Source of the DNA: a virus
Lineage: Duplodnaviria; Heunggongvirae; Uroviricota; Caudoviricetes
Virus record (IMG/VR): IMGVR_UViG_3300037852_000238
DNA length: 64,000 nucleotides
Direction: 5' to 3' (one strand)
Shown here: piece after piece, positions 6,697 through 26,589 of the stretch
Position numbering within the stretch: the stretch's first letter is position 1
Layout: each line of letters opens with the position of its first letter
Program-made: the position numbers and the translations under genes
The notes under the pieces: generated by a model
What the model was told of the DNA's origin: nothing
The model's input: the letters and a program-made list of their open reading frames with translations, nothing else
Databases searched by the model: none

Positions 6697-6698
6697 CT

Positions 6699-8599: not shown

Positions 8600-8601
8600 C
8601 A

Positions 8602-9174
8602 GTGCTCGACGTTGATAAGACGGTAATCAGCCAGTACAGCAACAGTCCTGTACTGACGCAGTTAATTGAAAATTTTAATACTTGTGTCGATCCGACGGTA
8701 GATCTACAACAGTTCTACGATTTAATCTGGAACATAGACACCGCACAGGGGGTCGGTCTCGACATTTGGGGACGAATTGTGGGAATCGGCCGAGTTTTAA
8801 CGGTAACCAGCGGCGTTTACTTAGGCATGACCGGCGCTGGCGGCGCCAGCGGCGAGACCTTCAACACCGGCATCTTCTACTCCGGCCAGACGATCACCAG
8901 CAACTACCGGCTGACCGACGAGGCTTACCGCCTGCTGATCCTGGCCAAGGCGGCGGCCAACATCTCGAACGGTTCGGTCCAGTCGATCAACGCGATCCTG
9001 ATGAACCTTTTCCCCAATCGTGGCAACTGCTACGTGACCGATAATGGCAACATGAGCCTGACTTACACCTTCCAGTTCCCGCTCCAGCCGTTCGAGGTAG
9101 CGATCATCAACACTTCCGGTGTGCTGCCCAAGCCGGCCGGCGTCGCCGCGGGCATCAGCTACCCGATACTCTGA
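8602..9174 (+). CDS. tail protein I-like (Mu gp48 / DUF2313-like)
   Basis: 190 aa; between J-like gene and tail fiber. Confidence 0.45.
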   Translation: MLDVDKTVISQYSNSPVLTQLIENFNTCVDPTVDLQQFYDLIWNIDTAQGVGLDIWGRIVGIGRVLTVTSGVYLGMTGAGGASGETFNTGIFYSGQTITSNYRLTDEAYRLLILAKAAANISNGSVQSINAILMNLFPNRGNCYVTDNGNMSLTYTFQFPLQPFEVAIINTSGVLPKPAGVAAGISYPIL

Positions 9175-10841: not shown

Positions 10842-12322
10842 GACGCCTTCTCCTCGCCGCCGCGTTCCTTGTCCTTGCCACTGCCCCGGCCGCGGCGCAG
10901 TCCACGCCGCAGTTTACGGCGGGCGGCCAGGTCTTCGGCTTTTTCGCGCCGAGCTGGAACCAGTTCTTCGGCGCGAAGGTCGACGTGAACGGCGGCACGG
11001 CGCACAACCTGACGCTGACCGGCACGGTCAACGGTGCCAACGCGCAGCTGATCCTGCCGACGTTCTCCTCGATATCTGCGACGCAGAACCTGACGACCTT
11101 GCCGCTCGGCCTGACCGGGTGGATCATCCAGGCCGGCGCGCAGGACGGCGTCATCGCGCGCGCCGAGCTCGACTCGTTCGGCAACACGGGGGTTTTCACC
11201 TGCCGCCGGGCGGACGGGACGAACCTCAACAAGACCGTGTTGGTCAACGGCGACGAGATCTGCTCGATCAACGCCTGGGGCTATAACGGTTCGGCCAGCA
11301 ACGTGGGTTACACTTCCGGTGGCCGCATCAGTTTCTTCGCGACCGGCACGTGGTCGCTGACAAGCACGCCGCTGGAGATCCGTTTCTCGACGACGCCGGT
11401 GGGTAGCGTCACGTTGGTTGACCGTTTCCACGTCGGCCCGGACGGCGGGTTCTACGCCGACGGCGTGACCGGCGGCAGCAAGGGCGCTGGCACCGGGAAC
11501 TTCGCCGGGCTGTACATCAACAACGTCGCGCTCTCGGCGATAAGCACTCCGGTCTCGGGGGCGAACGGCGGAACCGGGATCGCGAACACCGGCTCGACGC
11601 TGAGCCTGAACGGCGCGCACAACTACGGCTTTACGGCCAGCGTCGATACCACTGTGACGCTCCCCGCCGGTTCGTCGTCGACCTTAGCGAGCCTCGCCGG
11701 CACGGAGGCGTTAACTAATAAAACCATAAACGGCCTCACGATCACGACCTCGACCGGTACGTTGACGGTTGCCAACGGTAAGGTCGCGACGATCAACAAC
11801 ACGCTGACCTTCACGGGCACCGACGGCAGCAGCGTCGCCTTCGGCGCGGGTGGGACGATCGGCGGCGTAGGCTACGCCAGCAATGGGCAAGTCCCCGGCG
11901 TTGCCTCTAACACCGCTGCAACCGCCGGCAACTTCGGGGAGATCATCAAATCGGTAGTTACTTCTGGATCGGCGGTTCCCCTAGTAAGCTCTACATCAAA
12001 GACTGTAACATCAATTACATTAACTGCCGGTGAGTGGAATATCACAGGATGTGTATATATTTTGCCCGCAGCTACAACTTCTACTACAACAGAAGCCGTT
12101 TCAATCGGAGATGCCGATAATACTTTTATTACCACTCCTGGACGATACGCCGAACTTACTACATCCGCTGTTGTAACAGGTGGGGTTGAAGACACCTATT
12201 GTGTGCCTGCATATTACCTGTCTCTTTCTGGGAATTCTACTAAATACCTGATTGCTAATGCGGCCTTCTCCGTAAGTACCGCGTCGGCATTCGGTTATAT
12301 ACAAGCTGTTAGGATACACTAA
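10838..12322 (+). CDS. second fiber-like protein with N-terminal Sec-type signal peptide and low-GC C-terminal domain
   Basis: ATGA overlap with fiber 1; MRRLLLAAAFLVLATAPAAAQ signal-like N-terminus; Gly/Thr/Asn-rich beta-helix-like repeats; last ~400 nt markedly AT-rich. Confidence 0.65.
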   Translation: MRRLLLAAAFLVLATAPAAAQSTPQFTAGGQVFGFFAPSWNQFFGAKVDVNGGTAHNLTLTGTVNGANAQLILPTFSSISATQNLTTLPLGLTGWIIQAGAQDGVIARAELDSFGNTGVFTCRRADGTNLNKTVLVNGDEICSINAWGYNGSASNVGYTSGGRISFFATGTWSLTSTPLEIRFSTTPVGSVTLVDRFHVGPDGGFYADGVTGGSKGAGTGNFAGLYINNVALSAISTPVSGANGGTGIANTGSTLSLNGAHNYGFTASVDTTVTLPAGSSSTLASLAGTEALTNKTINGLTITTSTGTLTVANGKVATINNTLTFTGTDGSSVAFGAGGTIGGVGYASNGQVPGVASNTAATAGNFGEIIKSVVTSGSAVPLVSSTSKTVTSITLTAGEWNITGCVYILPAATTSTTTEAVSIGDADNTFITTPGRYAELTTSAVVTGGVEDTYCVPAYYLSLSGNSTKYLIANAAFSVSTASAFGYIQAVRIH

Positions 12323-13280: not shown

Positions 13281-13958
13281 GTGACCTTTCGCCCCGACGT
13301 ACTGGCCGAGTTCCTGCGCTCGCCGCTGCCGCCTTCGGCGGTGGCATTCGTGATGGATATTGCATCGGGCGAGATCAACTCGGCCCAGGGCTTCGAGACG
13401 CTGGCCGGCGGTGGCGCGATGACCGCCGCGATGTGCGGCGGCACGCTGTTCGCGCGCTACCCCGTCTGGGACGGCATCCCCGACTCGGCTGGCACCAGCC
13501 ACGGCGCCGGGGCGTTCCAGTGGGAGCGCCGTACCGCGGCGAGCATCACTGCCGGCACCGGCGTCACGACCTTCTACTCGCAGGACCAGATCAACGGCTC
13601 GTGGTGGTGGGCGAAGCTGTGCTACCACGCCGCTACCGAGCGCGACCTCGGCGCGGACCTGGCGGCCGGCTACTTCGACTCGCCGGGGCACGGCCCTGCT
13701 GGCCTCGGCAACCAGTGGGACCGTGGCAAGGTCGCAGGGCCGGGCAGCGACCGCTATGCCGGGTTCCTGGCGCAGGTTAATCAGGGACGTACGACGCCGG
13801 CTTCGCCAGCGCCGCCCGTCGTGCCGCTGACGCCGATCCAGGTCATCCTCGCCGGGGCGAACTTCAAGGACGGCGTGCGCGCGTTTCAGGCAGCGCGCGG
13901 GCTCGGGGTGGACGGCGTGATCGGCCCACACACGCTCGCGGCGCTGAACGCGGGGTGA
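13281..13958 (+). CDS. putative endolysin with C-terminal peptidoglycan-binding (PG_binding_1-like) domain
   Basis: C-terminal FKDGVRAFQAARGLGVDGVIGPHTLAALNAG motif; precedes membrane-protein genes (lysis cassette). Confidence 0.6.
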   Translation: MTFRPDVLAEFLRSPLPPSAVAFVMDIASGEINSAQGFETLAGGGAMTAAMCGGTLFARYPVWDGIPDSAGTSHGAGAFQWERRTAASITAGTGVTTFYSQDQINGSWWWAKLCYHAATERDLGADLAAGYFDSPGHGPAGLGNQWDRGKVAGPGSDRYAGFLAQVNQGRTTPASPAPPVVPLTPIQVILAGANFKDGVRAFQAARGLGVDGVIGPHTLAALNAG

Positions 13959-14233
13959 CCTGGTTCTTCCTTTCTGGCGGCGCTTTCATGGCGTTCGCTG
14001 CGGTCGTCACGCTGCTGATCGCGGCTTCGCTTATCGCGCCGTTCTTCAACGCCGAGCCCGAGCCGCCTCCGCCCGCGCCGGGGCCGCGGCTTGACACGCT
14101 GCCGCGGCGCAACTTCGTCCTTCACCCGCGGACGCCGTATCATCGGCACGTCCTGGTCGAGCGGACGCGCATCGTGCGGTATCGCGGCCAGTACTACGTC
14201 GAGGTCACCGAGTTCGACTATGAGATTGCGTAG
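13955..14233 (+). CDS. single-TM membrane protein (holin/lysis-associated candidate)
   Basis: GTGA overlap with endolysin stop; one hydrophobic helix then charged tail. Confidence 0.35.
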   Translation: MTWFFLSGGAFMAFAAVVTLLIAASLIAPFFNAEPEPPPPAPGPRLDTLPRRNFVLHPRTPYHRHVLVERTRIVRYRGQYYVEVTEFDYEIA

Positions 14234-14242
14234 GAGTCACTT

Positions 14243-14407
14243 ATGTCGCTTGGTCTAACACTCGTCATTATTCTCGTTCTCGCGCTGTTCGGTGGGTTCT
14301 TTCCCATCGGCGGCAACTACGGGTATGGATTCGGGGGAGGGGGCATCGGGGTTGTCGGCATCATCCTGATCATCCTCGTTGTGCTATTGCTCACGGGACG
14401 GTTGTAG
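14243..14407 (+). CDS. DUF3309-like small membrane protein (55 aa, two TM helices around a Gly-rich loop)
   Basis: AGGAG RBS 6 nt upstream; hand translation MSLGLTLVIILVLALFGGFFPIGGNYGYGFGGGGIGVVGIILIILVVLLLTGRL; not in ORF track (<60 aa). Confidence 0.5.
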   Translation: MSLGLTLVIILVLALFGGFFPIGGNYGYGFGGGGIGVVGIILIILVVLLLTGRL

Positions 14408-14829
14408 TGACTGGTCGCGTCTCATTACTCGCTCTGCTTTTTGTCGCCGGCTGTGCGCAGACGCCGGCGACCGCACCGCCGCAGGCGATGCCGCTGCTCC
14501 CGCTGCCGGCTCCGGCCAGGGCACCCATCGTCGAGACGCCTTCCGCGTGCCCACTCGGCCAGGTACTGCGCCGCGTTCGTGTTCGCCATGGCACTTACCA
14601 GACCGCCAGGTGCATCCCTCTCGATCGCCAGGTGCGGGGCGCGGTGCCGCTAGAGGACCCGATCAACGTCGCGTGCAAGGAGCTGGTCGTCGCGGAGCGT
14701 GGGAAGCCTCCTCTCGATAAGCCCGCGCCCGCGGTGGTGTTCTGCGACGACACCAAGCGCTACCACTCGGGCGACCCCGAGGCGGATGCGCGCTGGATAC
14801 ACGGTGAGACCAAGGCACTATCGCGGTAG
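14407..14829 (+). CDS. lipoprotein (lipobox LFVAGC); o-spanin candidate
   Basis: N-terminal signal plus Cys lipobox; inside the lysis cassette. Confidence 0.55.
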   Translation: MTGRVSLLALLFVAGCAQTPATAPPQAMPLLPLPAPARAPIVETPSACPLGQVLRRVRVRHGTYQTARCIPLDRQVRGAVPLEDPINVACKELVVAERGKPPLDKPAPAVVFCDDTKRYHSGDPEADARWIHGETKALSR

Positions 14830-14832
14830 ACG

Positions 14833-15153
14833 ATGGCCGACGCTCCGCGCATCAACGGCTCCGGCGGGTGGGCTATCCCGTTAGCCTCGCTCGTAGTAAC
14901 GGTCCTTGCGCTGATGTTTGCCATGTACGAGTCCTCCAACTCCACTTCAGCTAGCTCGGCGACGGCCTTTCAGAATCTCCAGTCCAGGGTGGCGGTCCTG
15001 GAGAATGAGATCGCCCGCTCGAACCAGGACGCCGGCCAGGATCGCTCGGAATACAGGCAGGGATTCAACGATATCTCCAAGAGATTCGAGTCCGTCCAGA
15101 CAGCAATCGCCGACTTGTATACGAAACTGGCGAGCAAGGCTGACCGCAAATGA
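14833..15153 (+). CDS. N-terminal TM plus coiled-coil protein; i-spanin-like candidate
   Basis: TM helix residues ~14-32, then heptad-like QNLQSRVAVLENEIARSNQ. Confidence 0.4.
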   Translation: MADAPRINGSGGWAIPLASLVVTVLALMFAMYESSNSTSASSATAFQNLQSRVAVLENEIARSNQDAGQDRSEYRQGFNDISKRFESVQTAIADLYTKLASKADRK

Positions 15154-15605
15154 ACTGGAATTGGCCGCTTATCATAAGCTTCGGGGCGGTGATACTTCTG
15201 CAGATCGTCTCGTATTGGTACGACCGGCGACAGTACTCGGTACTTAACAAGCAATTTCAAGAGATGGCGGATCGGGTCAGCATCATTAACGCGGGTTATA
15301 CGCCAATGTTCACGGCGTTACTCAAGGTCGTCGTCCCGGAATTGACGCATTTTCACACGCCCGAAGCCGATGATCTCCTGGCGCGGATCGCCACTCTCAA
15401 AGACGACGAGATGGATCGACTTGAAGTGCTCATGCGCGAGCGGGAGAGCGTGGTGGACCCCCAAATTTCTCCGAAAGAACGCGCGACCGCGCGAGCGCTG
15501 CCGTGGATTGCCCGGCGTGCCCGCGAGGAGGCCCAGGTCGGCCCGGACGTTCGCGTCGTCGTGCAGATGGTCTCGACTTCGTTGGAGGTGCAGGAGCCCA
15601 AGTGA
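15150..15605 (+). CDS. membrane-anchored hypothetical protein (151 aa)
   Basis: N-terminal TM helix; ATGA-coupled to preceding gene. Confidence 0.4.
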   Translation: MNWNWPLIISFGAVILLQIVSYWYDRRQYSVLNKQFQEMADRVSIINAGYTPMFTALLKVVVPELTHFHTPEADDLLARIATLKDDEMDRLEVLMRERESVVDPQISPKERATARALPWIARRAREEAQVGPDVRVVVQMVSTSLEVQEPK

Positions 15606-16081
15606 ACCGCCCAGACTCCCGAAAGATAGTCCTCCCCAACTTCGCCAAGGTTGACGCGACGCTGTGGCGCGGCGGCCGGCCGGACGAGGCCGGCGCGCGC
15701 TGGCTGGTCGCCGAGGGCGTACGCACGGTCGTCAACCTGGAGTGGGAGCAGGAGGACGACGACGTGTTCGGTTACGCGCCCGCGGTTCGCTTCGTGCGGG
15801 TCAAAGATTTTGAGCCGCTGCCCTGGTTCGCGCCGTCGGTGTCGGATCATCACGCCCGGCGGTTTCTCGCCGTCGTGCGCTCCGGTTCTACGCCGGTCTA
15901 CGTCCACTGCCGCTCGGGCGAGAACCGCACCGGCGTCATGGTCGCGGCGTACCAGCTGATCGTGAAGGGCCTGCTGCTCGACGACGTGCTAGATGAGTTT
16001 GACCGCTTCCGCGGCTTCTGGGCGTGGGGTGATTTTCGCTACATCCGCTCGCTCGACGCGCGCCGGTTGAGCTTCCGGTGA
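15602..16081 (+). CDS. protein-tyrosine / dual-specificity phosphatase family protein (CX5R active site)
   Basis: GTG start overlapping previous stop; VHCRSGENRTG = HCx5R P-loop; upstream DxxN-like acid region. Confidence 0.7.
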   Translation: MNRPDSRKIVLPNFAKVDATLWRGGRPDEAGARWLVAEGVRTVVNLEWEQEDDDVFGYAPAVRFVRVKDFEPLPWFAPSVSDHHARRFLAVVRSGSTPVYVHCRSGENRTGVMVAAYQLIVKGLLLDDVLDEFDRFRGFWAWGDFRYIRSLDARRLSFR

Positions 16082-16254: not shown

Positions 16255-16466
16255 AGCGACAGCGCCGCGAACGCCGCGCGCAGCTCGGCCAGCCGCGCGC
16301 GGATGAGGTCGCGCAGCTCGGCCGCGACGCCGGCCGGCACCGGCGCGGTCCCGGCGCACCAGCGGCGCACCGCGCGTGCGTCGACGCCGAGCGCCGCCGC
16401 GAGCTGCGGGCGGAACTCGGCGCCGAAGAGCGCGGTGCCGGTCTGGGTTAGGAGGGCGGGGGTCAC
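16251..16466 (-). CDS. small HTH-like protein
   Basis: C-terminal part of listed ORF; AALGVDARAVRRWCAG helix-turn-helix-like; probable GTG start near 16464. Confidence 0.4.
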   Translation of the reverse strand: MTPALLTQTGTALFGAEFRPQLAAALGVDARAVRRWCAGTAPVPAGVAAELRDLIRARLAELRAAFAALSL

Positions 16467-17125
16467 AGCGCTACCACCCGGTTGACGATCGTTTGCCGTT
16501 CGCCGCGGTAATCCGAGTGGTCCTTTACCGTCGCCTTGATCGTCAGCTTCGAGCCTTCCTTGCGGTAGAAGCTCGCCGACTTCGAGACCAGCAAGTTGCC
16601 CGTCGCGTCGCGCATATTGACGATGTAGACGGTCTCGTAGCCGTCGCCGTTGAACTGAATTCGGCCGAACGAGTGGACGCGTTCGACCTCGACCTCCGCT
16701 GTGATGCGGTTCCTGACGGCGCCGACGTAGTCGGACGCCGCACGCTTGGCGGCGCGCTCCGCATCCGTCATGATGCGGTTGCGGACCGCATTTAGCTGGG
16801 CGTCGCTTAGGGCCGCTTCGCGCGCGGCGCGGCGTAGTAGGCTCGCGGCGAACTCGTTGTCCTCGGGCTGAGCGCGGAGCCACGCTAATACGTCGCCGTT
16901 CGCGACCTCAAACGCCTCGCGACGAACCGCCGCTTCAGCGGCAATCTCGGCAGCCTTTACCGCGACGACCGCCAGCTTCTTCGCGTTGCGCTTTTCGGCC
17001 GCGGCGTTCAGCTTCGCCAGCTTCTCCGCCGTGTGGAGCCGCTCCGAGGCGGCGCTGCCGAGGCCGGAGCCGGCGCAGTCGTAGCAGGTATAGCCGGTGT
17101 GGCGCCACTGCTCGCCGCCGCCCAA
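16463..17125 (-). CDS. hypothetical protein (220 aa) with N-terminal CxxC pair
   Basis: Long ORF with protein-like composition opposite the late operon. Confidence 0.5.
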   Translation of the reverse strand: MGGGEQWRHTGYTCYDCAGSGLGSAASERLHTAEKLAKLNAAAEKRNAKKLAVVAVKAAEIAAEAAVRREAFEVANGDVLAWLRAQPEDNEFAASLLRRAAREAALSDAQLNAVRNRIMTDAERAAKRAASDYVGAVRNRITAEVEVERVHSFGRIQFNGDGYETVYIVNMRDATGNLLVSKSASFYRKEGSKLTIKATVKDHSDYRGERQTIVNRVVAL

Positions 17126-17227
17126 GCCACCGCACCGACGACACTTGGCCGTATAGACGTAGAACGGAACGCCTTTCGCGTCTTCGTGATTCGGGTTGCG
17201 GACCTTACTGTGGCGGTTGAAAAGGGC

Positions 17228-17262
17228 GGTCGTTCTTATGCCCTCCGGTCATAAGAACGACC
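17228..17262 (-). terminator. 13-bp perfect stem hairpin (GGTCGTTCTTATG / CATAAGAACGACC, 9-nt loop), weak T-run on minus strand
   Basis: Seen directly; overlaps stop of gene 17236..17442; followed on minus strand by GCCCTTTTC. Confidence 0.3.
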
Positions 17263-17442
17263 AACTTCGGCGATTTCCGTTACACCATCCACCGGCGGAT
17301 AGCGCCGCGCGATGGCGACGTACTCGGCGTCACCAAGCCCGGTGTCGTCTCCGAGGTTCAGGTAGCTGTAAACGTAGCGGCACTCCTCGTCCGGGTCGAC
17401 GGCTAGGAAATAGACGGTTATCGTGGCGATTTCGTGCGTCAT
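17236..17442 (-). CDS. hypothetical protein (68 aa)
   Basis: ATG with GGAGGG RBS; first gene downstream of motif copy 1. Confidence 0.45.
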   Translation of the reverse strand: MTHEIATITVYFLAVDPDEECRYVYSYLNLGDDTGLGDAEYVAIARRYPPVDGVTEIAEVGRSYDRRA

Positions 17443-17491
17443 CTCGGTCCCTCCAAGGGCGGGTCGGCCCAGCGCCAACCCCAACGATCAC

Positions 17492-17525
17492 TAACTTACG
17501 CGCTTTACTCAGCGGAGTAAATAGC
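17492..17525 (-). promoter_or_regulatory. copy 1 of 34-nt two-box motif TAACTTACGCGC-N13-GTAAATAGC
   Basis: Five same-orientation, same-spacing copies in the window, all 5' of minus-strand genes; on minus strand reads TTTACT-N17-TAAGTT. Confidence 0.55.
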
Positions 17526-17539
17526 AAAAAGGAGCCAAC

Positions 17540-18163
17540 GTGGAAAAAAGATTGACCCGCCGCTGGCTGCTGGCCGGCGCCTCGACGGTTGCGCTGGCGG
17601 GGTGCGCGCAGCCCCTAGTAGGCCCACCGGGACCAAGCCCTGTACCGCCGAGCAACACCCTCGGTCAGTATCTCGCTGCGATCATCTCCGGGCTCTCCGG
17701 CGAACTCGGAGCGTTAGGGCAGGTCGTCGGGATCACTCCGGCGGCCGTGGCGCAGATCTCTGACATTACCACCAAGCTGTTATCCGGGCAGCAGGTAAGC
17801 GCCGCCGAAGTGGTCGGAGCGGTTAACACGATCGTCGGCATCCTGGCGCCGCTCGGCGAGGCCGCGCTGGGGCCGTACGGTCTGGCACTCGCTGCAGCCG
17901 TAGCGTTGCTTCCGCTCGTCGAGCGGCTTGCAGGGCTTCCGGTTGCTGCGTCGCTACCATTACGCGCCGCGGCGCTTATGGACGAGCAGCAGGCGCTCAA
18001 TATATTGCGCCGAGCAGCTTCCGGATCACTGTCCGTGACCCCTGTTCCAGCCCCCGGCGCTTCTGCGCGCTTCCCCTCGCGCCGCCAGTGCGTCAGCTCG
18101 CGCACCGGGGCGATGTTTACGCCGCGGCACGCCAACGCGCGGTGCAAGATCCCGGTGCAATGA
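17540..18163 (+). CDS. lipoprotein (lipobox LAGC), 207 aa
   Basis: GTG start with AAAGGAG RBS; signal peptide plus Cys. Confidence 0.55.
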   Translation: MEKRLTRRWLLAGASTVALAGCAQPLVGPPGPSPVPPSNTLGQYLAAIISGLSGELGALGQVVGITPAAVAQISDITTKLLSGQQVSAAEVVGAVNTIVGILAPLGEAALGPYGLALAAAVALLPLVERLAGLPVAASLPLRAAALMDEQQALNILRRAASGSLSVTPVPAPGASARFPSRRQCVSSRTGAMFTPRHANARCKIPVQ

Positions 18164-18351
18164 AATCTCCGTCATTTGGCGCGCTCCCCCCTCCAAATTT
18201 GGAGTGGCAAATAGGTAAATCTGTGGCTGAAATATCGCTGATAGTACGTCTGGAACGAGTGCTTCAGTTTATGGATCGGCCAACAAGCCCGGCGGGAGAA
18301 TTGCTTCGGGAGATAATTGAAGAACGTAAGTGCTCGCCTGCGACCCGCTGA
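18160..18351 (+). CDS. small hypothetical protein (63 aa), low-GC
   Basis: ATGA overlap with lipoprotein stop; AT-rich relative to genome. Confidence 0.35.
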   Translation: MKSPSFGALPPPNLEWQIGKSVAEISLIVRLERVLQFMDRPTSPAGELLREIIEERKCSPATR

Positions 18352-18575
18352 CCTACATCAGTGTCGACGCCCCGGCCTGGGCTCGCGTCAGGATCGCCGC
18401 GGCGCGCTACGTGACGATCGACGCCGACGCCGGCTGGGCTACCTCGCGCGGCTTCGCGTTCGCCTGGGCGTACGACCCGCGCGCCGGGGTGCTAACGATT
18501 CGGGTTGACGACCGGCCGCCCTCCGTGCCTTGTGAGTCGATCGCGACGGTTATTGGCGGGGCGTTGAGCCGCTAG
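18330..18575 (+). CDS. hypothetical protein (81 aa)
   Basis: ORF with typical codon composition; overlaps previous gene end. Confidence 0.3.
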   Translation: MLACDPLTYISVDAPAWARVRIAAARYVTIDADAGWATSRGFAFAWAYDPRAGVLTIRVDDRPPSVPCESIATVIGGALSR

Positions 18576-18703
18576 GAAGCCGTTACGCGCGCGGAAGCGG
18601 TTTTAGGCTAGGGTAACTACGCCCGCGGCCGTTCCGCGCACCTACGGGTTCCCTAGGGGCTCTAGGTTGGCCTTTCTATGAACGAGAGGGAGTTAAGCGT
18701 AAG

Positions 18704-18889
18704 ATGAACCCACGTTGCCCTCATTGCGGCAAGTTTATGAACCTGGGGTGGAATGCCGGCATGATCGTTTGGCAATGCCCCAGCGCGGGTCTTGGTTGGT
18801 CGGACGGGGTGCATCCCGTTTCGATTACGACTACAAGCACCACTGGCAACAGCTTCGCGGGTCTGCCTTACAAGCAACAAACGCAATAG
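18704..18889 (+). CDS. small zinc-ribbon-like protein (CPHCG…WQCP)
   Basis: GAGGGAG RBS upstream; two Cys pairs. Confidence 0.45.
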   Translation: MNPRCPHCGKFMNLGWNAGMIVWQCPSAGLGWSDGVHPVSITTTSTTGNSFAGLPYKQQTQ

Positions 18890-18900
18890 GGGGAACCCCG

Positions 18901-19707
18901 ATGCCCCTCCACCGACAATATGGCCGGCGTCCGCGCCGCTTCAACCCGAATATCCCTCACATGTCGTCCCTCCGCATGATGCGCGGCCGCGCGCCGCTGC
19001 CGCCGATCCCGGACTCCGCCGACTACGGCGCCAAGCTGCCGGCGGATGTTGGCATGCTGATGAACGATTCGTTGGGCGACTGCACGTGTGCTGGCGTCCT
19101 CCACGCCATCCAGACGTGGACCGCGAACGCGGGCACGATCGCCCCGGTAACGGACGCCAACGCGCTGGTGCTGTATGAGGCCTGGGCGGGGTATAATCCG
19201 GGCGCGCCGCGCGCGACCGACGGGACCAACCCGACCGACGCCGGGGCGGACGAGCAGACGATCCTGACCGACTGGGCGACGGAGGGCTTCTACCTGACGG
19301 CCGGCGGGCCGGTAGACCGCCTCGCGGCCTTCGTCGAGCTCGACCCGCGCAACCAGGGCGACGTGCGGCGGGCCATCTACACGGGCGCTGTGGTGTATAT
19401 TGGATTCAACGTGCCAAAGAGCCTGGAGAACACCGACCCGGCGCCGTTCTCCTGGGACGTGGTGCCGGGGCAGACGCAGTCGGTGGGCGGGCACTGCGTT
19501 ATCCTAAATTCCTACACCCTGAGCGACTTCGGCCTCGTGAGCTGGGGATTGAAGTACCGCATGACCAACGCCTTCTTTTCGACTTTTTGCGACGAGGCTT
19601 ATGCCCTGGTCAGTACGGACTGGATCGCGGCCGGCGGCGCGACGCCGCTCGGCATGTCGCTCGCCGACCTGGAGAAGCAGATGGGGGCGCTGCGCCGCGC
19701 CGCCTAG
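18901..19707 (+). CDS. papain-like (C1-like) cysteine peptidase candidate
   Basis: LGDCTCAGVLHAI (Cys nucleophile context like QGxCGSCWAF) and VGGHCVILNSY (His context like GGHAV); start chosen at ATG 18901 with GGGGGA RBS. Confidence 0.55.
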   Translation: MPLHRQYGRRPRRFNPNIPHMSSLRMMRGRAPLPPIPDSADYGAKLPADVGMLMNDSLGDCTCAGVLHAIQTWTANAGTIAPVTDANALVLYEAWAGYNPGAPRATDGTNPTDAGADEQTILTDWATEGFYLTAGGPVDRLAAFVELDPRNQGDVRRAIYTGAVVYIGFNVPKSLENTDPAPFSWDVVPGQTQSVGGHCVILNSYTLSDFGLVSWGLKYRMTNAFFSTFCDEAYALVSTDWIAAGGATPLGMSLADLEKQMGALRRAA

Positions 19708-19733
19708 CTACACGCACCTTAGAGCGCTTCCAA

Positions 19734-19765
19734 CGCCCCGCCTCGCGCGGGGCGTTTTGCGTTTT
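19734..19765 (+). terminator. rho-independent terminator (8-bp GC stem, TTTTGCGTTTT tail) at convergence point
   Basis: CGCCCCGC-ctcgc-GCGGGGCG followed by T-run; lies between convergent genes. Confidence 0.7.
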
Positions 19766-20796
19766 CACTTCCACCCGTTAGGCTGATCCACGACCACCGT
19801 CGAGCCGGCGCGGTCGACCGCGACCGGCACCTCGATCGGGTCACCCAGCGCCACCTTGACGGCCGCGCGGCGCTCGGGCTCGACGACGAGCAGAAAGAAT
19901 CCCCCGCCGCCCGCACCGAGCAGTTTTCCACCGACCGCGCCCGCGGCCCGCGCGCGCCCGTACAGCGCGTCTACGGCGGCGGGCGCGACGCCGGGGGCCA
20001 GCCCGCGCTTAACGCGCCAGGCGGCGTCCAGGAGCGCCCCCAGCTCCGTCACGGGGCATCGGGGGTCGGTCAGGATCGCCTCGGCGTCGTTAACCATCGC
20101 CGCGAGTGCGGCCAGCCCACGCGCATTCTCGTTGATGCGCGCGATCTTCACCGCTTCGACCTCGGCCGCGACCCGCGTCGTGCCGGTGTAGACCAGCATC
20201 AGGTGGGCTAGTATTTCAACCTTACGGCTTGGAGAAATCTCTAACGGATGGATTCCGATAATGTTCGGCTTAAAGCCGGCCTCGATCTCCTCCGGCGTCG
20301 CTCCGAACTGTAACCGATTGAAACCTCCGAACGCCGCGAAGACCTGATCCTGCGACCCCACTGCCTCGCCGATCAGCGCCTGCTCCACGTGGATCGCGTC
20401 GCTCGCCAGCTCCTCCGGCGAGAGCCGGCGGCCGTCCAGCGTCGCCGCGGCGTTGAGCAGCCCCACGGTGAAGGCCGACGACGAGCCCATCCCACTCATG
20501 TGCGGGATGTCGCCGGCGTGGTGGAGCTCGTAGCCCTGGCCGGGCGCGCCGACCGCGCGCAGCACCTCGCGGGCGGCGGGGTGCGCGATCTCGTCGACCT
20601 CGCGCACCAGCTCGGTGCGCGACCACACGATGCGGTGGCGGTGAGCGAAGTAGGGTGGCAGGCGGCGCAGCGAGATCCAGCAGTATTGCGCGAGTGCGAA
20701 GCCGAGCGTGGCGCCGCCGTGGGCGCGGTAGTGCGCGGGCAGGTCGGAGCCGCCGCCGGCGAGGCTGATGCGGTGCGGTGTTCGGGTGATGATCAA
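19765..20796 (-). CDS. hddA: GHMP-family sugar kinase, D-glycero-alpha-D-manno-heptose 7-phosphate kinase (HddA)-like
   Basis: GHMP motif PHMSGMGSSSAF; Gly-rich C-terminal GGKLLGAGGGGF; size 343 aa. Confidence 0.75.
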   Translation of the reverse strand: MIITRTPHRISLAGGGSDLPAHYRAHGGATLGFALAQYCWISLRRLPPYFAHRHRIVWSRTELVREVDEIAHPAAREVLRAVGAPGQGYELHHAGDIPHMSGMGSSSAFTVGLLNAAATLDGRRLSPEELASDAIHVEQALIGEAVGSQDQVFAAFGGFNRLQFGATPEEIEAGFKPNIIGIHPLEISPSRKVEILAHLMLVYTGTTRVAAEVEAVKIARINENARGLAALAAMVNDAEAILTDPRCPVTELGALLDAAWRVKRGLAPGVAPAAVDALYGRARAAGAVGGKLLGAGGGGFFLLVVEPERRAAVKVALGDPIEVPVAVDRAGSTVVVDQPNGWK

Positions 20797-20801
20797 GGTA
20801 T

Positions 20802-21023
20802 TTAACGCTGATAAATTGGGTTCTTTTTCTCAAACTCTTTACGGCGAGCAACGCAAATGCGAACTCGCTCAACGATCCTTAAATCAAAAGGCGCCACGCT
20901 CGTTGGATCAGAGTTAAATTCGGCGTTGATTAAATCGAGTAAGATGTGGGCTTCTTCGTCATTTTTCCAGCTATCTTCCATTTCTCGCTGCCGCTTGCTA
21001 CTCATTCTTGGAGTTTTATCCAT
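20802..21023 (-). CDS. small low-GC hypothetical ORF inserted between hddA-like and hddC-like genes
   Basis: AT-rich island (approx 20800-21020) inside GC-rich operon; 73-aa ORF. Confidence 0.3.
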   Translation of the reverse strand: MDKTPRMSSKRQREMEDSWKNDEEAHILLDLINAEFNSDPTSVAPFDLRIVERVRICVARRKEFEKKNPIYQR

Positions 21024-21028
21024 CTAAG

Positions 21029-21616
21029 TTATGGTGCCTCCCGCTCCGCCCGCGCCAGACCCTCCGGCGAACCGATATCCCAGAACGCGCGGCAGCAGCC
21101 CACCGGCAGCGCGCCCCATGTGGGCTGCCGCCGGTCCAGCCACGCGCGCGGTAGCAGGTGCACGCCAGACTCGACGTGGGCCAACCCTACCGGGGCCACC
21201 GCGACCAACCCGACGGGCACGCGCTGGGAGGTGTAGACCGTCAGCAGGGTCCGCCAGTCCAGATCCACCAGCGTGTCGCCGTTGACGACGGCGACGGGGT
21301 CGGAGAGTTTGGAGAATGCCTCTGCGATGCTGTTCAGCGCGTGTGGGATCGAGCGCGGCTCGGGCTCCTCCCAGTTTACCGTCGGCATCGAGGTTATCAT
21401 CCTCGGAAGCGCGCGCCGGATTTGCTCCGCCCCATAGCCCAACGCCAGCACTGCGCACTGGAACCCGGCCGCGGCGAGCTGGCGCAGTAGTGCCTCGGCG
21501 AACGGCCGGTCGCGGAAGGGCGCGAGGAACTTCGGCACGCCGGGTGGTAATGCCGGCGCTAGGCGCGTGCCTTGGCCGCCGCAGAGGATTATCACATCTA
21601 GGTCAGCGGGGGTCAC
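21029..21616 (-). CDS. sugar-1-phosphate nucleotidyltransferase (heptose-1-P guanylyltransferase HddC-like)
   Basis: N-terminal IILCGGQGTRLAP…PKFL signature of NTP-transferase family; GTG start overlapping next gene. Confidence 0.7.
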   Translation of the reverse strand: MTPADLDVIILCGGQGTRLAPALPPGVPKFLAPFRDRPFAEALLRQLAAAGFQCAVLALGYGAEQIRRALPRMITSMPTVNWEEPEPRSIPHALNSIAEAFSKLSDPVAVVNGDTLVDLDWRTLLTVYTSQRVPVGLVAVAPVGLAHVESGVHLLPRAWLDRRQPTWGALPVGCCRAFWDIGSPEGLARAEREAP

Positions 21617-21903
21617 GGCTTGACCAGCTTGACGACCTTCTCCCGCTCGGGTTCGTCGACCCAGTTCAGGAAGGCTCGGACCCCGGCGTAATCGTCGAAG
21701 ATCTTGGCCGGCGCGCCCTCGTCGCCGGGCTTCAGCATCAGTAACCGGAGATCCACGACGTAGCAGCCGAACTTGTTCGGTTCGCCCGTGCTCGGGTTCA
21801 GCGCGCGGACCAGGTAAAGGTGGCGGGTCTGGCGCCGCTCGAAGCGCGCGAGCTGCCAGTAGTCGTCCGGCATATCGAGCATCAGGTAGAGGCCGATCAT
21901 CGG
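21613..21903 (-). CDS. hypothetical protein (about 96 aa; internal ATG start chosen)
   Basis: C-terminal portion of listed ORF is protein-like; the N-terminal extension is not. Confidence 0.35.
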   Translation of the reverse strand, partial: PMIGLYLMLDMPDDYWQLARFERRQTRHLYLVRALNPSTGEPNKFGCYVVDLRLLMLKPGDEGAPAKIFDDYAGVRAFLNWVDEPEREKVVKLVKP

Positions 21904-23406
21904 AGCAAGTCCCTGTCTAAAGTGTAGGAAAGCATCTTCTCCACCTCCGCCACGGCGCCGGGGCCGAACCGCGCGCGGAGCATCGCGCGGTACTCGGGGG
22001 AGGAGAAGTAAGTGACGTGGGCGGCGTCGCGGAAGCGGAGGATGTCGGCGGCCGAGAGGTGTGCGTTGCGCAGCGGCACCGTGTGCCGGTTGTGCTGCGA
22101 GTACGCCGCCCAGCTCGGTGGCAGATCCTCCGGCCGCTCGCGCGCGACCCGGTCGTAGAGCGGCGAGCCGGGGTACGGCATGGCGCAGTAGAAGTTGGCC
22201 CACTCCGCGTTGAGGCGCTGGGCCAGCGCAAGCGTCTCGCGCATCGACGCTTCGGTGTCGTCGGGCAGCCCGAAGATGTAATTGCCGATAACGTTAATGT
22301 CGGCGCGGCGGATCGCCAACACGGTCGTCTCAATCCCGAGGTTGCCGTCGCCGCGTAAGGCTTTGTTGGTTCCAGCGCGGACCTCGCTCGACCCCGACTC
22401 GATCCCGAGCGCCAGCCAACGGATGCCGGCCGCGCGCATCAGCGGCAGATCCTCCTCGCGCACGGTATCGGTGCGGGCGTAGGCCCAGACGTTGATGTCG
22501 TTACCAATACCAGAATCGACTAGCCATTGGCAGACCGCACGATAATGATTTTTTGATAAAACAAAAAGTTCGTCTACGATCTTGAATGTCCGTACACCAC
22601 GTTCGCGGTAGAGCCAGACCATCTCCTCGACGACCGCCGCGGGCGAGCGGCGGCGGTAGCGGTTCGTGTGCTGAAAGACGTTGATCATGCAGAAGTCGCA
22701 CGTGTAACTGCATCCGAGTGACGTATACACCGCCGCGTAGGGCGACGACCGCGGCCAACCGTCCAGGCACTGCCAGTTGTGGGCGCGGTAACGCGATGGC
22801 TCGGGCAGTAGGTCCCACGTGCGGCCGTGGAGGTCGCGGTCAAGGTCAAGTGGTGGAGCGAGGGGGTTGCGAACGATCTCGGCGCTCCGCCAAACCAGAC
22901 CGGGGATCTCGCCGAGTTTGAAGATGTAGCTACCTCTTTCGGGGTCATCTTTCGAGGGTGACTCCCCTAACCGTAAAAGGGCATCTAGGGTTATCGGTCC
23001 TTCACCGTCGATGACAAAATCACATGGCTCCTCGCGAAGTGTTTGTTCGGGTAGGGCGGAAGGGTGGTTGCCGAGAAGGATTACTTTCGAATGGTCCTTA
23101 TGATTTAAACCTATTTCCCAAGCCACCGCCCGCGCACCCGGTAGAGCCTGCGTGCTGGCGCTGGGCTGGTGGCCGTGGACACAGATCGCAACGACCCGCG
23201 GCCGTAGGAGCGCGACCTTGGCAGCGATCTCCGCCGCGCTCAACCCTTCCACCTCCTGGTCGACGATTGTGACCGACCACCCGCGGTCGCGCAGGTAGCC
23301 GGCGATCAACCGGGGCCATAGTGGTGGCTCGCGCGCGACGAGCTCACCGCCGAGCGGGCCGTATATGCCGTGGACGCCTCCGGGATGTATCAGAACGATA
23401 TCAGTC
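21897..23406 (-). CDS. B12-binding domain radical SAM protein (class B, likely C-methyltransferase)
   Basis: N-terminal B12-binding-like Rossmann segment; CSYTCDFC = CX3CX2C radical SAM motif; GTG start VTDIVLIHPGG. Confidence 0.75.
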
Positions 23407-24190
23407 ACACGAACATCTCCTTCTCCACCGCTGCGCAGATCGTGTGGCCGATCGCCAGGTGGATCTCCTGGATGACCGGCGTCTCGTCGCTCGGGGCGCG
23501 GATCAGGACGGCGACATGCTCGGAGTGCTCCCGTAGGACGTGGCCGCCGTCCGCGCCGGTCATCGCAATCACCTTCATCCCGCGCGCGAAGGCGGTGTCG
23601 ATCGACCGCAAGACGTTCGGGCTCCTGCCCGACGTGCTTATCACCACTAGAACGTCGCCGGAGTTTCCCAGGCCCGCTATCCACCGGGCGAAGGTCCAGT
23701 CGTACCCGTAGTCGTTCCCGAGTGCGGTCAAGGTCGCCGGCTCGGTCAGCGCGATCGCCGCCAGCGGCGCCCGATCCCGCGCGTAGCGCTCGACGAGCTC
23801 GGCCGCCAGGTGCGCCGCCAGTGCCGCGGAGCCGCCGTTGCCGCAGAGCAAGACCTTTCCGCCAGCGCGGAGAGCGGTGGTGATTAGCTGGGCCGCGTTG
23901 TCTACGGAAGTGAGGTAATCGACGTCGACTGCGAGGCGATTGAATGCGGTCATAAAGTCGTTAATATGCTTATTCATGCCTTCAGGTACCTCACGCTTTA
24001 GTGCATCAATTATAGCGCCCGCAGCTTTACCGACCTCGGTTGAGCGGTCTAAATTGGCGGTCATCCGTAATACGAACTCGGCGTTGCCGCCGAGCAATAT
24101 TCGGCGTATCTGTTCCTTCTTGCTCATCCGTTGAAAGTCTTCGTACATCGCTTCTTCAAGGCTCGGAAACGGCATCACACATTCCCCCAC
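23405..24190 (-). CDS. gmhA: SIS-domain phosphoheptose isomerase (GmhA-like); possible shorter start at MNKHI
   Basis: GGKVLLCGNGGSAA…ISTSGRS…GMKVIAMTG SIS motifs; AT-rich N-terminal extension. Confidence 0.7.
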   Translation of the reverse strand: MGECVMPFPSLEEAMYEDFQRMSKKEQIRRILLGGNAEFVLRMTANLDRSTEVGKAAGAIIDALKREVPEGMNKHINDFMTAFNRLAVDVDYLTSVDNAAQLITTALRAGGKVLLCGNGGSAALAAHLAAELVERYARDRAPLAAIALTEPATLTALGNDYGYDWTFARWIAGLGNSGDVLVVISTSGRSPNVLRSIDTAFARGMKVIAMTGADGGHVLREHSEHVAVLIRAPSDETPVIQEIHLAIGHTICAAVEKEMFV

Positions 24191-25125
24191 TGGTGCCGTG
24201 GAAACGCCGCGTAGAGCTTGAGCAACTCATCAATCCCCTCCACCAGCCCGCGTCGCGCGCGGAAGCCGGCCGCGGCCAGCCGCTTGTTGGAGACGAGATA
24301 ATCGCGGGCATCAGGATCGCGCCCCTCGACCTCGAACCAACGGAACCCCGGCACCCGCGTGCGGATCGCCTCGCACAGCCCGCGTTTGGTGATGTTGGCT
24401 TCGTCGTTGCCGAGGTTGAAGATGCGCTCCGCGCTCGGAAGACCTTTCCAGATTACGCGCGGTGGATCGATCGCCCATAAGATTGCGTCCGCCACGTCCC
24501 TGACGTGCACGAAGTTCCGCCGGGCCGCACCGTCATACAGCGCTACCGCCTCGCCGCGCGCGGCCTTCAGCACGAAGTCGTTGACCAGTAAGTCGGTTCT
24601 CATCCGCGGACTAGCACCCATGACGGTCGCCAACCGAAACACCACCGCGTTCGGGTGCTCCAACACCACGGCCTCGCCCTCGCACTTGGTCCGCGCATAT
24701 AGCGACAGCGGCCGCTGCGGCGCGTCCTCGGTCAGCGGCTCGGCGCCGCCGGTGCCGTAGGCGGAGTTGGTGTTGGGGTAGATTAGGAGCTGGCGCGGCG
24801 AGAGCAGGCCGACGAGCGTGCGCACGGCGTCCCGGTTGGTTGAGACGGCAGCAGCGGAGTCAGCGTCACACGCCGGTGCGCCGACGATCGCGGCTAGATT
24901 CACCACCGCGTCCGCACGGGCCACCAGCGGGCGCAGTGTCATGGCGTCCCGCATGTCGCCTCGCACCAGTTCGAACCGCGGGTCGGCGCAGCACGCGGCC
25001 AGCGCGAGAGCCTGGTTGTAGCGGAGGTTGTCGACGATGGTGACGCTATATCCTCTGTCGAGCATCATTCGGGCCATGACGCTCCCCAGATACCCCGCGC
25101 CGCCGAGCAGAAGGACGTGATCCAT
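24175..25125 (-). CDS. NAD-dependent epimerase/dehydratase (SDR) family protein
   Basis: LLLGGAGYLGS Rossmann motif; 316 aa. Confidence 0.8.
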   Translation of the reverse strand: MDHVLLLGGAGYLGSVMARMMLDRGYSVTIVDNLRYNQALALAACCADPRFELVRGDMRDAMTLRPLVARADAVVNLAAIVGAPACDADSAAAVSTNRDAVRTLVGLLSPRQLLIYPNTNSAYGTGGAEPLTEDAPQRPLSLYARTKCEGEAVVLEHPNAVVFRLATVMGASPRMRTDLLVNDFVLKAARGEAVALYDGAARRNFVHVRDVADAILWAIDPPRVIWKGLPSAERIFNLGNDEANITKRGLCEAIRTRVPGFRWFEVEGRDPDARDYLVSNKRLAAAGFRARRGLVEGIDELLKLYAAFPRHQWGNV

Positions 25126-25413
25126 TTATTCCCCCGTGACTCCGAACGAGCCCTTCGACGGTGGCCGCGTCGGTAACGCCGCCTCCCGCCCCGTCAACGG
25201 CCTTCGCGGCCGGCGGAACAACCGCCGCTTCGCCCGGTACGCGGCCGGTAGGCAGTCCCAGCAGCGCCACTCGCCCCGGTACGCGAACAGCCGCCAGCCG
25301 TCACGGTGCGTCCGGCCGCAGGCGCAGGTGGGGGTCACCGGGCGAGGTACCACAATAGTTGACCGAAAGCGAATCCCGCAAACGGGGCCACCAAAGGTAG
25401 CGCCCGTAACCAT
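25126..25413 (-). CDS. small Cys-rich hypothetical protein
   Basis: Abuts SDR gene; CxC…CxxC. Confidence 0.3.
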   Translation of the reverse strand: MVTGATFGGPVCGIRFRSTIVVPRPVTPTCACGRTHRDGWRLFAYRGEWRCWDCLPAAYRAKRRLFRRPRRPLTGREAALPTRPPSKGSFGVTGE

Positions 25414-25446
25414 AAAGGTCGCCGGGTGAGTCGTTTCAGTTCAACC

Positions 25447-26589
25447 TCATAATACCTCCCTCATAACAGCCACCGCCTTCTCGATAAGTTCCGGTATCGG
25501 CCACGGCGCGCAACCCAGGAACATGCCTCGCTCATGCACGAGATCGGCCCGCGGCGTCTTCTGGTCACGCCATGGCACGCCGTATGGATGCTTTAGGAAC
25601 GATCCGCCCGTCGGCGGCCGGCTGTCGATCCCGGCCATGGCCAGCGCTCGCGCCAACGGCGCACGGCGCGTGGGGTCGAGGACCTCAAATGCGAGGCCGA
25701 ACGGTGACGGGGTTCCGCGTTGCTGCTGGTGCTGTATCGGCGCTTCGAGCGTGCAGGCAATGAAATGAGATATGTTTCGGCGCCTGGCAAAAATCATCTC
25801 GTCGAGCCGTTTTAATTGTTTGCGGGCGACCGCGCAATGCGCCTCGACCGGTCTTACATTGTAGCCGAATAGACTGAACGAATAACGCCCCTCGAATTCC
25901 TCCCGCCCCCAGCCCTCGTTCCCGTGGTTGCGCAGCAGGCGGCAGAGCCGCGCCAGCTCGTCGTCGTCGGTGAGTATCCAGCCGAGTTCGACGGCACTAA
26001 TTTGGTGGGAGTAGAAGCCCGAGCCGGTCGAGAGGTCGCCGAACGTGCCGGTCAGTCGGCCTTCCGACGTCCGCCCGCCGATTGATTCGCAATTGTCCTC
26101 AAGGAGTAGCTGCTTTTGCCAGCGGGAGGTCGCGCAACGCCAATCACTTAGGTGGCCAGGACTTCCCAAGATCGACGCGATGACGGTTAGCGGCTCGCTC
26201 CTCGTAAGCGGCGCGTTCCAGGTATCATCCACGTCGATGATCGTTGGCCAATAACGGTGCTGTAGGGCCGGGCTATAGGTTGTTGACCATGCGACTCCGG
26301 GCGCGACGAAGCGTCCCTCGTAAGGACCTTCTTCCTCGTTGATGTATCCTTCATCGACATGCCAATGCCTGATCGCCGCCACCGCCACCAGGTTCGCGCT
26401 CGACCCCGAGTTTACGGCGATAGCGTGCCGCCGGCCATGGTAGGCCGCGATCTCTTCCTCGAACGCCTCGGTCTCAGGTCCCATGGTCAGCCGGCCAGAG
26501 CGCAGCACGCGCTCGTACGCGGCCCATTCGGTGGAGCCGTCATACGGTTTCCACGACGAGAATGCAGCGGGAAAGAGCCAATCTTTCAT
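25447..26589 (-). CDS. DegT/DnrJ/EryC1/StrS-family PLP/PMP sugar aminotransferase or 3-dehydratase
   Basis: Fold-type I sugar aminotransferase blocks (SGSSANLVAV, EDNCESIGG, LRNHG); residue at canonical Lys position unclear (FYSHQIS). Confidence 0.75.
   Translation of the reverse strand: MKDWLFPAAFSSWKPYDGSTEWAAYERVLRSGRLTMGPETEAFEEEIAAYHGRRHAIAVNSGSSANLVAVAAIRHWHVDEGYINEEEGPYEGRFVAPGVAWSTTYSPALQHRYWPTIIDVDDTWNAPLTRSEPLTVIASILGSPGHLSDWRCATSRWQKQLLLEDNCESIGGRTSEGRLTGTFGDLSTGSGFYSHQISAVELGWILTDDDELARLCRLLRNHGNEGWGREEFEGRYSFSLFGYNVRPVEAHCAVARKQLKRLDEMIFARRRNISHFIACTLEAPIQHQQQRGTPSPFGLAFEVLDPTRRAPLARALAMAGIDSRPPTGGSFLKHPYGVPWRDQKTPRADLVHERGMFLGCAPWPIPELIEKAVAVMREVL

Follow-up and report, generated by a model that had tools for sequence, protein, structure and literature searches.

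Positions 17540–19765 of a 64,000-nucleotide stretch of tailed-phage DNA (Caudoviricetes; IMG/VR record IMGVR_UViG_3300037852_000238), hereafter the window, hold a block of five rightward open reading frames (ORFs). The last of these encodes a 268-aa protein with a predicted papain fold, which is the main subject of this study. It is preceded by the genes for a predicted lipoprotein and a Cys/His peptide and by two further short ORFs. The window is a segment of a large tailed-phage genome with ~66% G+C, and the same DNA was found in Joint Genome Institute (JGI) metagenome contigs reaching 104 kb. An initial annotation, made from the sequence alone, had described the block as a moron-like unit that contains a papain-like cysteine peptidase and closes with a strong terminator. 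Each of the features it named (lipoprotein, small ORFs, Cys/His peptide, 268-aa protein and terminator) is present at the positions collected in Table 1.

The peptidase gene is read from the ATG at 18901, which is preceded by a GGGGGA ribosome-binding site (RBS). At this codon the G+C content of third codon positions (GC3) rises from 0.56 to 0.88, and conservation within the family begins at residue 5 of the resulting 268-aa form. Two other versions of the gene were rejected: a mechanically derived 330-aa ORF (start TTG 18715), which has the wrong 5' end and over-extends through the region of the 61-aa gene, and the public 243-aa call (P0001), which starts at Met26 and drops the N-terminal motif conserved in the family. 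The corrected gene model, with the conserved N-terminus restored, is a practical gain of the analysis.

Table 1 Features of the block, of its flanks and of the bacterial partner loci. Positions refer to the window, except in the last row, where they refer to the individual loci.
Feature	Position	Strand	Basis or remarks
Tape-measure protein with SLT domain, baseplate proteins, tail fibres	1416–12322	+	
Candidate lysis cassette	13281–15153	+	Domain matches, hydropathy
Lysis cassette gene 1: C-terminal PG_binding_1 domain, catalytic part unrecognised	13281–13958	+	
Lysis cassette: small transmembrane protein	13955–14233	+	
Lysis cassette: small transmembrane protein, DUF3309	14243–14407	+	
Lysis cassette: proline-rich lipobox protein, o-spanin-like	14407–14829	+	
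Lysis cassette: protein with N-terminal transmembrane segment and coiled coil, i-spanin-like	14833–15153	+	
DSP-type protein tyrosine phosphatase	15503–16081	+	PTP-NADK, Tc-R-P and Y_phosphatase2 models, E down to 8e-17
Leftward gene matching phrog_3628 and related families	16463–17125	-	
Leftward 82-aa gene	17236–17484	-	
Intergenic region between divergent genes	17485–17539		AGGAG at 17530–17534, 5 nt before the GTG start
207-aa Tat-like lipoprotein ORF, GTG start	17540–18163	+	Sequence, hydropathy
63-aa low-GC ORF from an internal ATG	18160–18351	+	ATG overlaps the lipoprotein stop (ATGA)
81-aa orphan ORF with strong coding signal	18330–18575	+	GC3 0.88; called in public annotation
128-nt intergenic spacer	18576–18703		GAGGGAG RBS ahead of 18704
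61-aa Cys/His peptide, CPHC...C...H	18704–18889	+	GC 0.56
268-aa papain-fold cysteine peptidase, phrog_19005 family	18901–19707	+	
N-terminal motif, Gly8–Arg12	18922–18936	+	
Asn55 codon	19063–19065	+	
Cys61 codon	19081–19083	+	Within LGDCTCAG
His198 codon	19492–19494	+	Within GGHCV
Glu232 codon	19594–19596	+	
Intrinsic terminator	19732–19766	+	Hairpin 19732–19756, T-rich tail
GHMP kinase	19765–20796	-	Convergent with the peptidase gene
PNP_UDP_1 partners with tail motif: loci L092, L108, L113, L167, L133, L132, L134, L124, L155, L148, L149, L152	~5870–5990 in most		

Fold, conserved residues and spread of the peptidase family

An AlphaFold (AF2) model of the 268-aa protein (predicted local distance difference test score, pLDDT, 95.1; predicted template modelling score, pTM, 0.92) and a family profile were built from an alignment of 56 relatives (A1). 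A Foldseek comparison of the model to the PDB ranks xylellain (3OIS) first, with E = 1.7e-10 and a template modelling (TM) score of 0.63, followed by procathepsins K, B and L, Legionella Lpg2622 and papain. The search returned 115 PDB matches at E ≤ 0.001, of which the best 50 listed are all C1-family enzymes. At the level of the predicted structure, the protein thus displays the two-lobed papain fold. Sequence comparison leads to the same enzyme: the A1 profile finds 3OIS with E = 3.8e-5 in an alignment that spans both the Cys and the His motif, placing the family's GDCT opposite GSCT of xylellain and GGHAV..[IV]SWG opposite GGHAV..NSWG. Xylellain is both the best structural match and the only significant sequence match of the family.

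Seven residues (Asn55, Cys61, His68, Gly115, Gly168, His198 and Glu232) are invariant across 114 family sequences, with Cys61 and His198 following each other in the order of the catalytic Cys and His of C1 enzymes. Cys61 is predicted to open a helix and His198 to lie on the beta-barrel lobe, where the two would form the catalytic centre. Asn55 is located six residues before Cys61 (N-D-x-L-G-D-C), at the spacing of the papain oxyanion-hole Gln, whose position it would occupy as an Asn instead of a Gln. The N-S-W-G motif of C1 enzymes is only partly kept, with S-W-G retained and the triad Asn absent: position 213, which lies opposite the xylellain Asn in the HMMER alignment, is Ile in 88, Val in 16 and Leu in 5 of the sequences (109/114). 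The Asp231–Glu232 pair and His68 are family-specific, and invariant or nearly so. Presumably, Asp231–Glu232 takes over the role of the lost Asn. The protein therefore departs from C1A on two counts, the triad Asn and the match to curated models, and is a divergent relative of Peptidase_C1, not a member of the Pfam C1 family. The peptidase call of the initial annotation is supported by the xylellain-like model, the sequence match to 3OIS and the invariant Cys61 and His198, and what was found is a peptidase fold, not a conserved virion protein devoid of one. We are highly confident that the identification of the fold and of the conserved Cys/His centre is sound. The sequence data furthermore suggest that the protein is probably a cytoplasmic, active, C1-like peptidase of clan CA, if a divergent one.

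The family sequence LPPxPxxxDY...NDxLGDC corresponds to the beginning of the mature domain in papain-type enzymes, such that the preceding ~30 residues can be considered an N-terminal extension. By analogy to xylellain, this segment may be a short pro- or pseudo-substrate segment; the mature domain of xylellain is reportedly preceded by an N-terminal segment that blocks its active site. Hydropathy analysis of the peptidase revealed no hydrophobic N-terminal region and no signal peptide. Some homologues carry C-terminal additions (P0072, P0074, P0086, P0092, P0101, P0010, P0082, P0094 and L056:5998–7590), which range from polybasic tails (e.g. RRHRHHRRKMKRQR) and ~110-aa coiled-coil extensions to a 270-aa extension ending in DUF4214.

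Both xylellain and the window peptidase are short, single-domain proteins that lack the classical long propeptide. The two differ in that their identity is only ~14% and PF00112 misses the window protein. Furthermore, the window family has Asn for the oxyanion Gln and Ile/Val/Leu for the Asn of N-S-W-G, while His68, Asp231–Glu232 and the KLGR-type N-terminal motif are specific to the window family or fall outside the description of xylellain. The papain and cathepsin zymogens (procathepsins K, B and L; procaricain) share with the window family the two lobes with Cys on a helix and His on the barrel, as well as the P-x-x-x-D-[YW] ... N/Q-x5-C pattern with which the mature domain opens, and the high Foldseek rank of zymogen structures is consistent with the N-terminal extension of the window protein. 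In contrast to these zymogens, the latter has a ~30-residue extension instead of a ~100-residue prodomain, lacks a signal peptide and the disulfide pattern, and is a cytoplasmic protein of prokaryotic or viral origin. Phage proteins named Peptidase_C1 in BFVD (A0A6J5TCZ4 of an uncultured Caudovirales phage; A0A873WLH1 of Streptomyces phage Shady) adopt a papain fold with TM scores of ~0.5–0.6 to the model at 12–15% identity. They are uncharacterised like the window protein but, judging from their names, are recognised by Peptidase_C1, unlike the window family. Xylellain-type short C1A peptidases have been horizontally acquired by Myoviridae and Siphoviridae (PMC10380794).

The family is large. 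The profile phrog_19005 (function unknown) matches the protein over its full length (E = 3.1e-34, residues 5–266 against profile positions 3–257 of 260). A word-indexed search of 5.8 billion proteins recovered 347 relatives, none of them named, and 291 relatives are found in IMG/VR. A relative is also encoded in 98 stretches of GTDB species-representative genomes. The 80 of these loci that were retrieved cover at least seven phyla at 36–47% identity (Acidobacteriota, Alpha- and Betaproteobacteria, Verrucomicrobiota, Planctomycetota, Spirochaetia, Desulfobaccales and others) and derive mainly from bog and soil assemblies.

The genomic context of the family was analysed by calling ORFs in 91 loci with a crude ORF caller and clustering the neighbours, and no neighbour was found to recur beside phage homologues. 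Pfam searches with 150 neighbours returned endolysin types, portal, terminase, DUF2213, antirepressors, sulfo- and glycosyltransferases and methyltransferases. Among 59 non-redundant viral loci, and within the limits of the ORF calls, the gene lies at a strand switch in 29 and is co-directional with both neighbours in 27. It follows and overlaps the end of an amidase gene in phage MW202816, where it is annotated as "cysteine protease and beta", is located ~2 kb away from the integrase gene and a tRNA gene in phiKX2, a temperate Komagataeibacter phage, and is a lone chromosomal gene in some bacteria. At the level of sequence and gene order, this distribution fits a mobile single-gene accessory. 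In five Terriglobales loci (L093, L095, L112, L128, L005), the peptidase gene precedes those for a radical SAM protein and a lipoprotein-like protein of 200 aa, with 76–88% identity. A functional link to the radical SAM neighbour was rejected, as this neighbour is confined to closely related Terriglobales loci of 80–86% identity and probably reflects lineage synteny.

A motif shared with bacterial PNP_UDP_1 proteins

A PNP_UDP_1 (PF01048) protein of 350–390 aa is encoded directly upstream of the peptidase in 16 of the 80 genome loci (E down to 1e-10), which belong to Alphaproteobacteria, Caballeronia, Acidobacteriota and Desulfobaccales. In 12 of these loci, the C-terminal tail of the partner carries the motif G-[FY]-K-L-G-R-L-[PAST]-[PR], at a distance of 6–17 residues from the stop. 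Of the other four partners, that of L119 retains a truncated version, FKLGRT, at its end, and those of L143, L116 and L094 are devoid of the motif. A 17th locus (L097) has only a 109-aa remnant of the partner, in which the tail motif is retained. The motif of the partner tail is the same as that at the N-terminus of the peptidase family, the consensus of which reads M-K-[LFY]-G-R-[LK]-[PA]-R-x-[FHY]-[DN]-P-R-[IV]-P-H, with Gly8, Arg9 and Arg12 conserved in 110, 103 and 106 of the 114 sequences, respectively. When a strict version of the pattern was searched for in all six frames of 170 loci, nearly all non-self matches fell between -116 and -82 nt relative to the peptidase start.

The two copies of the motif in locus L149 are identical in 8/8 amino acids and in 19/24 nucleotides. 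Since they differ at synonymous positions, the likeness points to selection at the peptide level and not to a recent DNA duplication. The occurrence of the motif on both the partner tail and the peptidase N-terminus suggests that it serves as a recognition site of the peptidase, i.e. is probably what the enzyme binds or cleaves. In two loci (L162:5878 and L153:1281) from which the PNP_UDP_1 partner is absent, the tail motif GFKLGRLSP precedes the KLGR motif of the peptidase itself by ~34 residues in an in-frame fusion, such that the two motifs stand in tandem. The partner was never present beside phage copies of the peptidase in the loci examined.

Other genes and boundaries of the block

The 207-aa ORF that opens the block begins MEKRLTRRWLLAGASTVALAGC, which comprises a twin-arginine stretch (TRRWLL), a hydrophobic region and an LAGC lipobox. 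Read from the sequence, MEKRLTRRWLLAGASTVALAG-C22 conforms to the pattern [LVI][ASTVI][GAS]C, and the protein is thus a predicted lipoprotein. Its mature part is rich in Ala, Gly and Leu, with a hydrophobic stretch at about residues 108–135. The ORF has a GC3 of 0.74, and the public metagenome annotation includes it as a gene. No relatives were recovered among the 5.8 billion proteins, which returned only the protein itself, and no match was found in GenBank phages. A role as spanin or lysis protein was rejected as unnecessary, given that a candidate spanin pair is encoded in the lysis cassette upstream. A family of helical proteins, some with a transmembrane segment and a lipobox-like GC motif, adjoins certain peptidase homologues (L063:6677–7801, L075:6787–7968, L045:2059–2814, L068:4857–5660). 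A putative endolysin (GH108-like by eye) lies downstream of the helical protein, directly in L063 and two ORFs on in L075. Profile comparison of the window lipoprotein to this lipobox/helical family was insignificant (probability 1.7%).

Two of the ORFs that follow have an atypical base composition. The first (18160–18351; GC 0.51, GC3 0.45) is not called in the public annotation and gave no family match and no phage match; its coding status is doubtful and it may be non-coding. The second encodes the Cys/His peptide. For the 81-aa ORF between them, which like the peptidase gene has a host-like GC3 of 0.88, only the protein itself was recovered among the 5.8 billion proteins, and GenBank phages gave no match. 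The spacer that separates the 81-aa ORF from the Cys/His peptide gene showed no significant fold (z = -1.8) and no Rfam family. The Cys/His peptide has homologues in three small clusters (P0125, P0128 and P0132; 56–61 aa, E 2.5e-7 to 9e-5), with the pattern CP[HY]CG...WNAG..VW.CP...HP, and all four sequences of the family retain Cys5, Cys8, Cys25 and His37, the putative zinc ligands. Sequence conservation thus supports its membership of a genuine small-protein family. Pfam zinc-ribbon models and the NCBIfam L37ae model match it below threshold only, and these are the sole matches of the five block ORFs in Pfam, NCBIfam and PADLOC. Its homologues (L184–L186) occur in arrays of tiny phage-like ORFs on short metagenome contigs, with no adjoining peptidases. 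ORFs with a CxxC motif upstream of peptidase homologues were found in 5 of 147 loci, all unrelated.

The block genes have the same orientation, lie close together or overlap, and are served by a single strong terminator. A terminator at the point where the two transcription directions converge had been predicted, and it is clearly recognisable in the 57-nt gap between the peptidase and GHMP-kinase genes: a hairpin of 10 pairs (8 of them G-C) with a 5-nt loop is followed by TTTTGCGTTTTC, and the local fold of -27.5 kcal/mol corresponds to z = -4.9, with 0 of 200 shuffles as stable. The block thereby has a 3' terminator of its own, as expected of a moron. At the other end, the region 17485–17539 revealed no significant RNA structure (z = -0.2), and a separate promoter is presumed, implied only by the orientation of the genes. 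As a sigma-70 and terminator scan found no + strand terminator between 16451 and 17540, it is possible that the late operon reads through into the block. No Rfam match was obtained for 16500–20500, and a search for flanking repeats or attachment (att)-like sites around the block gave only imperfect GC-rich chance matches.

To the left of the block lie the tail and baseplate genes, among them those for a Pam3 gp18-like plug, a gp41-like hub, a GpV apex, Baseplate_J and DUF2612 (all within 1416–12322). The initial annotation placed the block directly after the structural genes; the lysis cassette, the phosphatase gene and two leftward genes intervene before 17540. The order of the genes in the candidate spanin pair is the opposite of the usual spanin arrangement. 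The cassette is followed by a gene for a 151-aa protein with an N-terminal transmembrane segment (15150–15605), a 37%-identical relative of which (L016:3378–3698) sits ~2.3 kb upstream of a peptidase homologue in one IMG/VR contig. The phosphatase gene is placed between the lysis genes and the block, with two small ORFs after it. The 220-aa leftward protein has matches of at most 39% identity in IMG/VR, none of them in a close phage relative. At the 3' end of the leftward 82-aa gene, and overlapping it, lies a hairpin (17228–17262) with a nearly perfect 16-bp stem and a loop of 3 nt, followed on the - strand by GCCCTTTT; it looks like the terminator of this single small gene.

All genes to the right of the block are leftward. 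They include a class II ribonucleotide reductase, a SNF2 helicase and a sugar-nucleotide pathway (19765–26589, - strand) of GHMP kinase, nucleotidyltransferase, B12-binding radical SAM protein, NAD epimerase/dehydratase and DegT aminotransferase. The pathway converges on the block terminator and could modify DNA or a glycan. Close phage relatives for a presence/absence comparison were sought in IMG/VR with the GHMP kinase as query, and none were found.

Possible roles and relation to known systems

The best explanation of the data, to which we assign a probability of roughly 60%, is that the phage encodes a xylellain-like cytoplasmic cysteine peptidase as a solitary moron-like accessory gene, and that the N-terminal motif is a binding or cleavage target. 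The gene would form the 3' end of a rightward run of unrelated orphan ORFs, which is presumably co-transcribed and ends at the strong terminator that separates it from the leftward sugar-nucleotide and replication genes. Several observations weigh against this interpretation. The protein has no Pfam match at E ≤ 0.1, PF00112 included, and no match in NCBIfam or PADLOC; the Peptidase_C1 model suggested for its verification thus fails to detect it. With the canonical Asn absent, activity could be weak or altered. The motif of the window protein itself, QYGRRPRR, is a weak version of FKLGRLPR that keeps only the G-R-x-P-R core, and a search across the window revealed no PNP_UDP_1 partner and no convincing protein with a terminal KLGR-type motif. 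Finally, the sigma-70 scan found no promoter in 17485–17539, a result limited by the fact that the host and its promoter type were not identified.

The shared motif invites a more far-reaching proposal. The family would recognise [FY]-K-L-G-R-L-[PA]-R, the bacterial pairs would constitute an undescribed protease-gated nucleosidase system, possibly of the abortive-infection kind, and the solitary phage copies would be hijacked versions of the enzyme, by which the host effector or other proteins with the motif are wrongly processed. We regard this scenario as improbable. PNP-domain ATP nucleosidases are known immune effectors, for which no such partner protease is mentioned (bioRxiv 10.1101/2023.01.24.525353). 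The arrangement resembles that of bacterial gasdermins with an adjacent protease, in that the protease adjoins an effector-like gene with a C-terminal tail motif. This analogy extends to the bacterial pairs only: a PNP_UDP_1 enzyme is not a pore former, the motif is also found on the protease, and the partner is absent from the window. The corresponding role for the phage copy, that of a counter-defence or takeover protease which cleaves or sequesters KLGR-motif host proteins, draws on the peptide-level selection of the shared motif, on the immune function of related nucleosidases and on the consistent lack of a partner beside phage copies. Against it stand the degenerate motif of the window protein and the lack of significant PADLOC matches for either peptidase or partner; moreover, the PNP_UDP_1–peptidase pair could equally be metabolic. 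Hence, this role is also unlikely.

A different reading treats the block as a lysogenic-conversion or exclusion module, in which lipoprotein, small proteins and peptidase would act together from a prophage, e.g. by modifying the envelope. The tight or overlapping co-oriented genes with their single strong terminator, the position at a transcription boundary and the two low-GC ORFs are in line with such a module, and lipoproteins are classic moron and exclusion products. However, when the block and flanking proteins were compared by tblastn to the 170 homologue loci, only fragments of the same phage were found, such that no other block gene accompanies the peptidase elsewhere, and the lipoprotein and the 81-aa ORF are orphans. 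The peptidase, lacking an export signal, would furthermore not meet a periplasmic lipoprotein. The sigma-70 scan gave no promoter, and no evidence of lysogeny was found within the window, in which no search for an integrase was made. A concerted module is accordingly rather unlikely. With no block gene beside any peptidase homologue, the sequence comparisons indicate that the block consists of accessory ORFs that have a terminator in common but are otherwise unrelated, and is not a conserved module. Of the initial proposal, the description as moron-like is plausible for the peptidase as a single gene, since this gene is mobile and its context varies; it is not supported for the block as a module.

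The peptidase could instead be a lysis accessory, namely a stem-peptide endopeptidase of peptidoglycan that aids the endolysin. About 6 of the 59 viral loci have endolysin-type neighbours (Amidase_2, GH25, Phage_lysozyme, PG_binding_3; GH108-like by eye), the gene overlaps the end of an amidase gene in MW202816, and one fold relative in BFVD has a peptidoglycan-binding annotation. Most homologues, however, lie away from lysis genes and many are chromosomal, while the phage already possesses a candidate lysis cassette 4 kb upstream. The protein has no signal, signal-arrest-release (SAR) or wall-binding domain, and its two-lobed C1-like fold is not that of CHAP or NlpC/P60 enzymes. We thus consider involvement in lysis distinctly unlikely. 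That the protein is a catalytically dead papain-fold scaffold, e.g. a binding protein, is most improbable: the loss of the triad Asn and the failure of curated C1 models are what such a scaffold might show, but Cys/His dyads suffice in many clan CA enzymes, and the strict invariance of Cys61, His198 and Asn55 in 114 sequences from many phyla is the pattern expected from purifying selection on catalysis.

The preferred reading as a solitary xylellain-like peptidase leaves the best estimate of its role in the phage as that of an accessory or takeover enzyme with specificity for a short motif, from which either phage or host might benefit. The significance for the window itself is modest, as it amounts to a single gene for an accessory enzyme, accompanied by orphan ORFs, at a boundary of transcription. 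Papain-fold peptidases of tailed phages have been noted before, none with a known role. The family described here is abundant in phages and bacteria of soil and bog, and goes undetected by Pfam, NCBIfam and PADLOC. Of the by-products of the analysis, the bacterial pairs with their shared motif are the most interesting. An eight-residue motif found on both the enzyme N-terminus and the tail of a conserved nucleosidase-like partner provides a testable handle on specificity. If the motif is a cleavage or docking site, it would supply a substrate and an assay for hundreds of uncharacterised proteins, and may reveal a protease-controlled nucleosidase pair.

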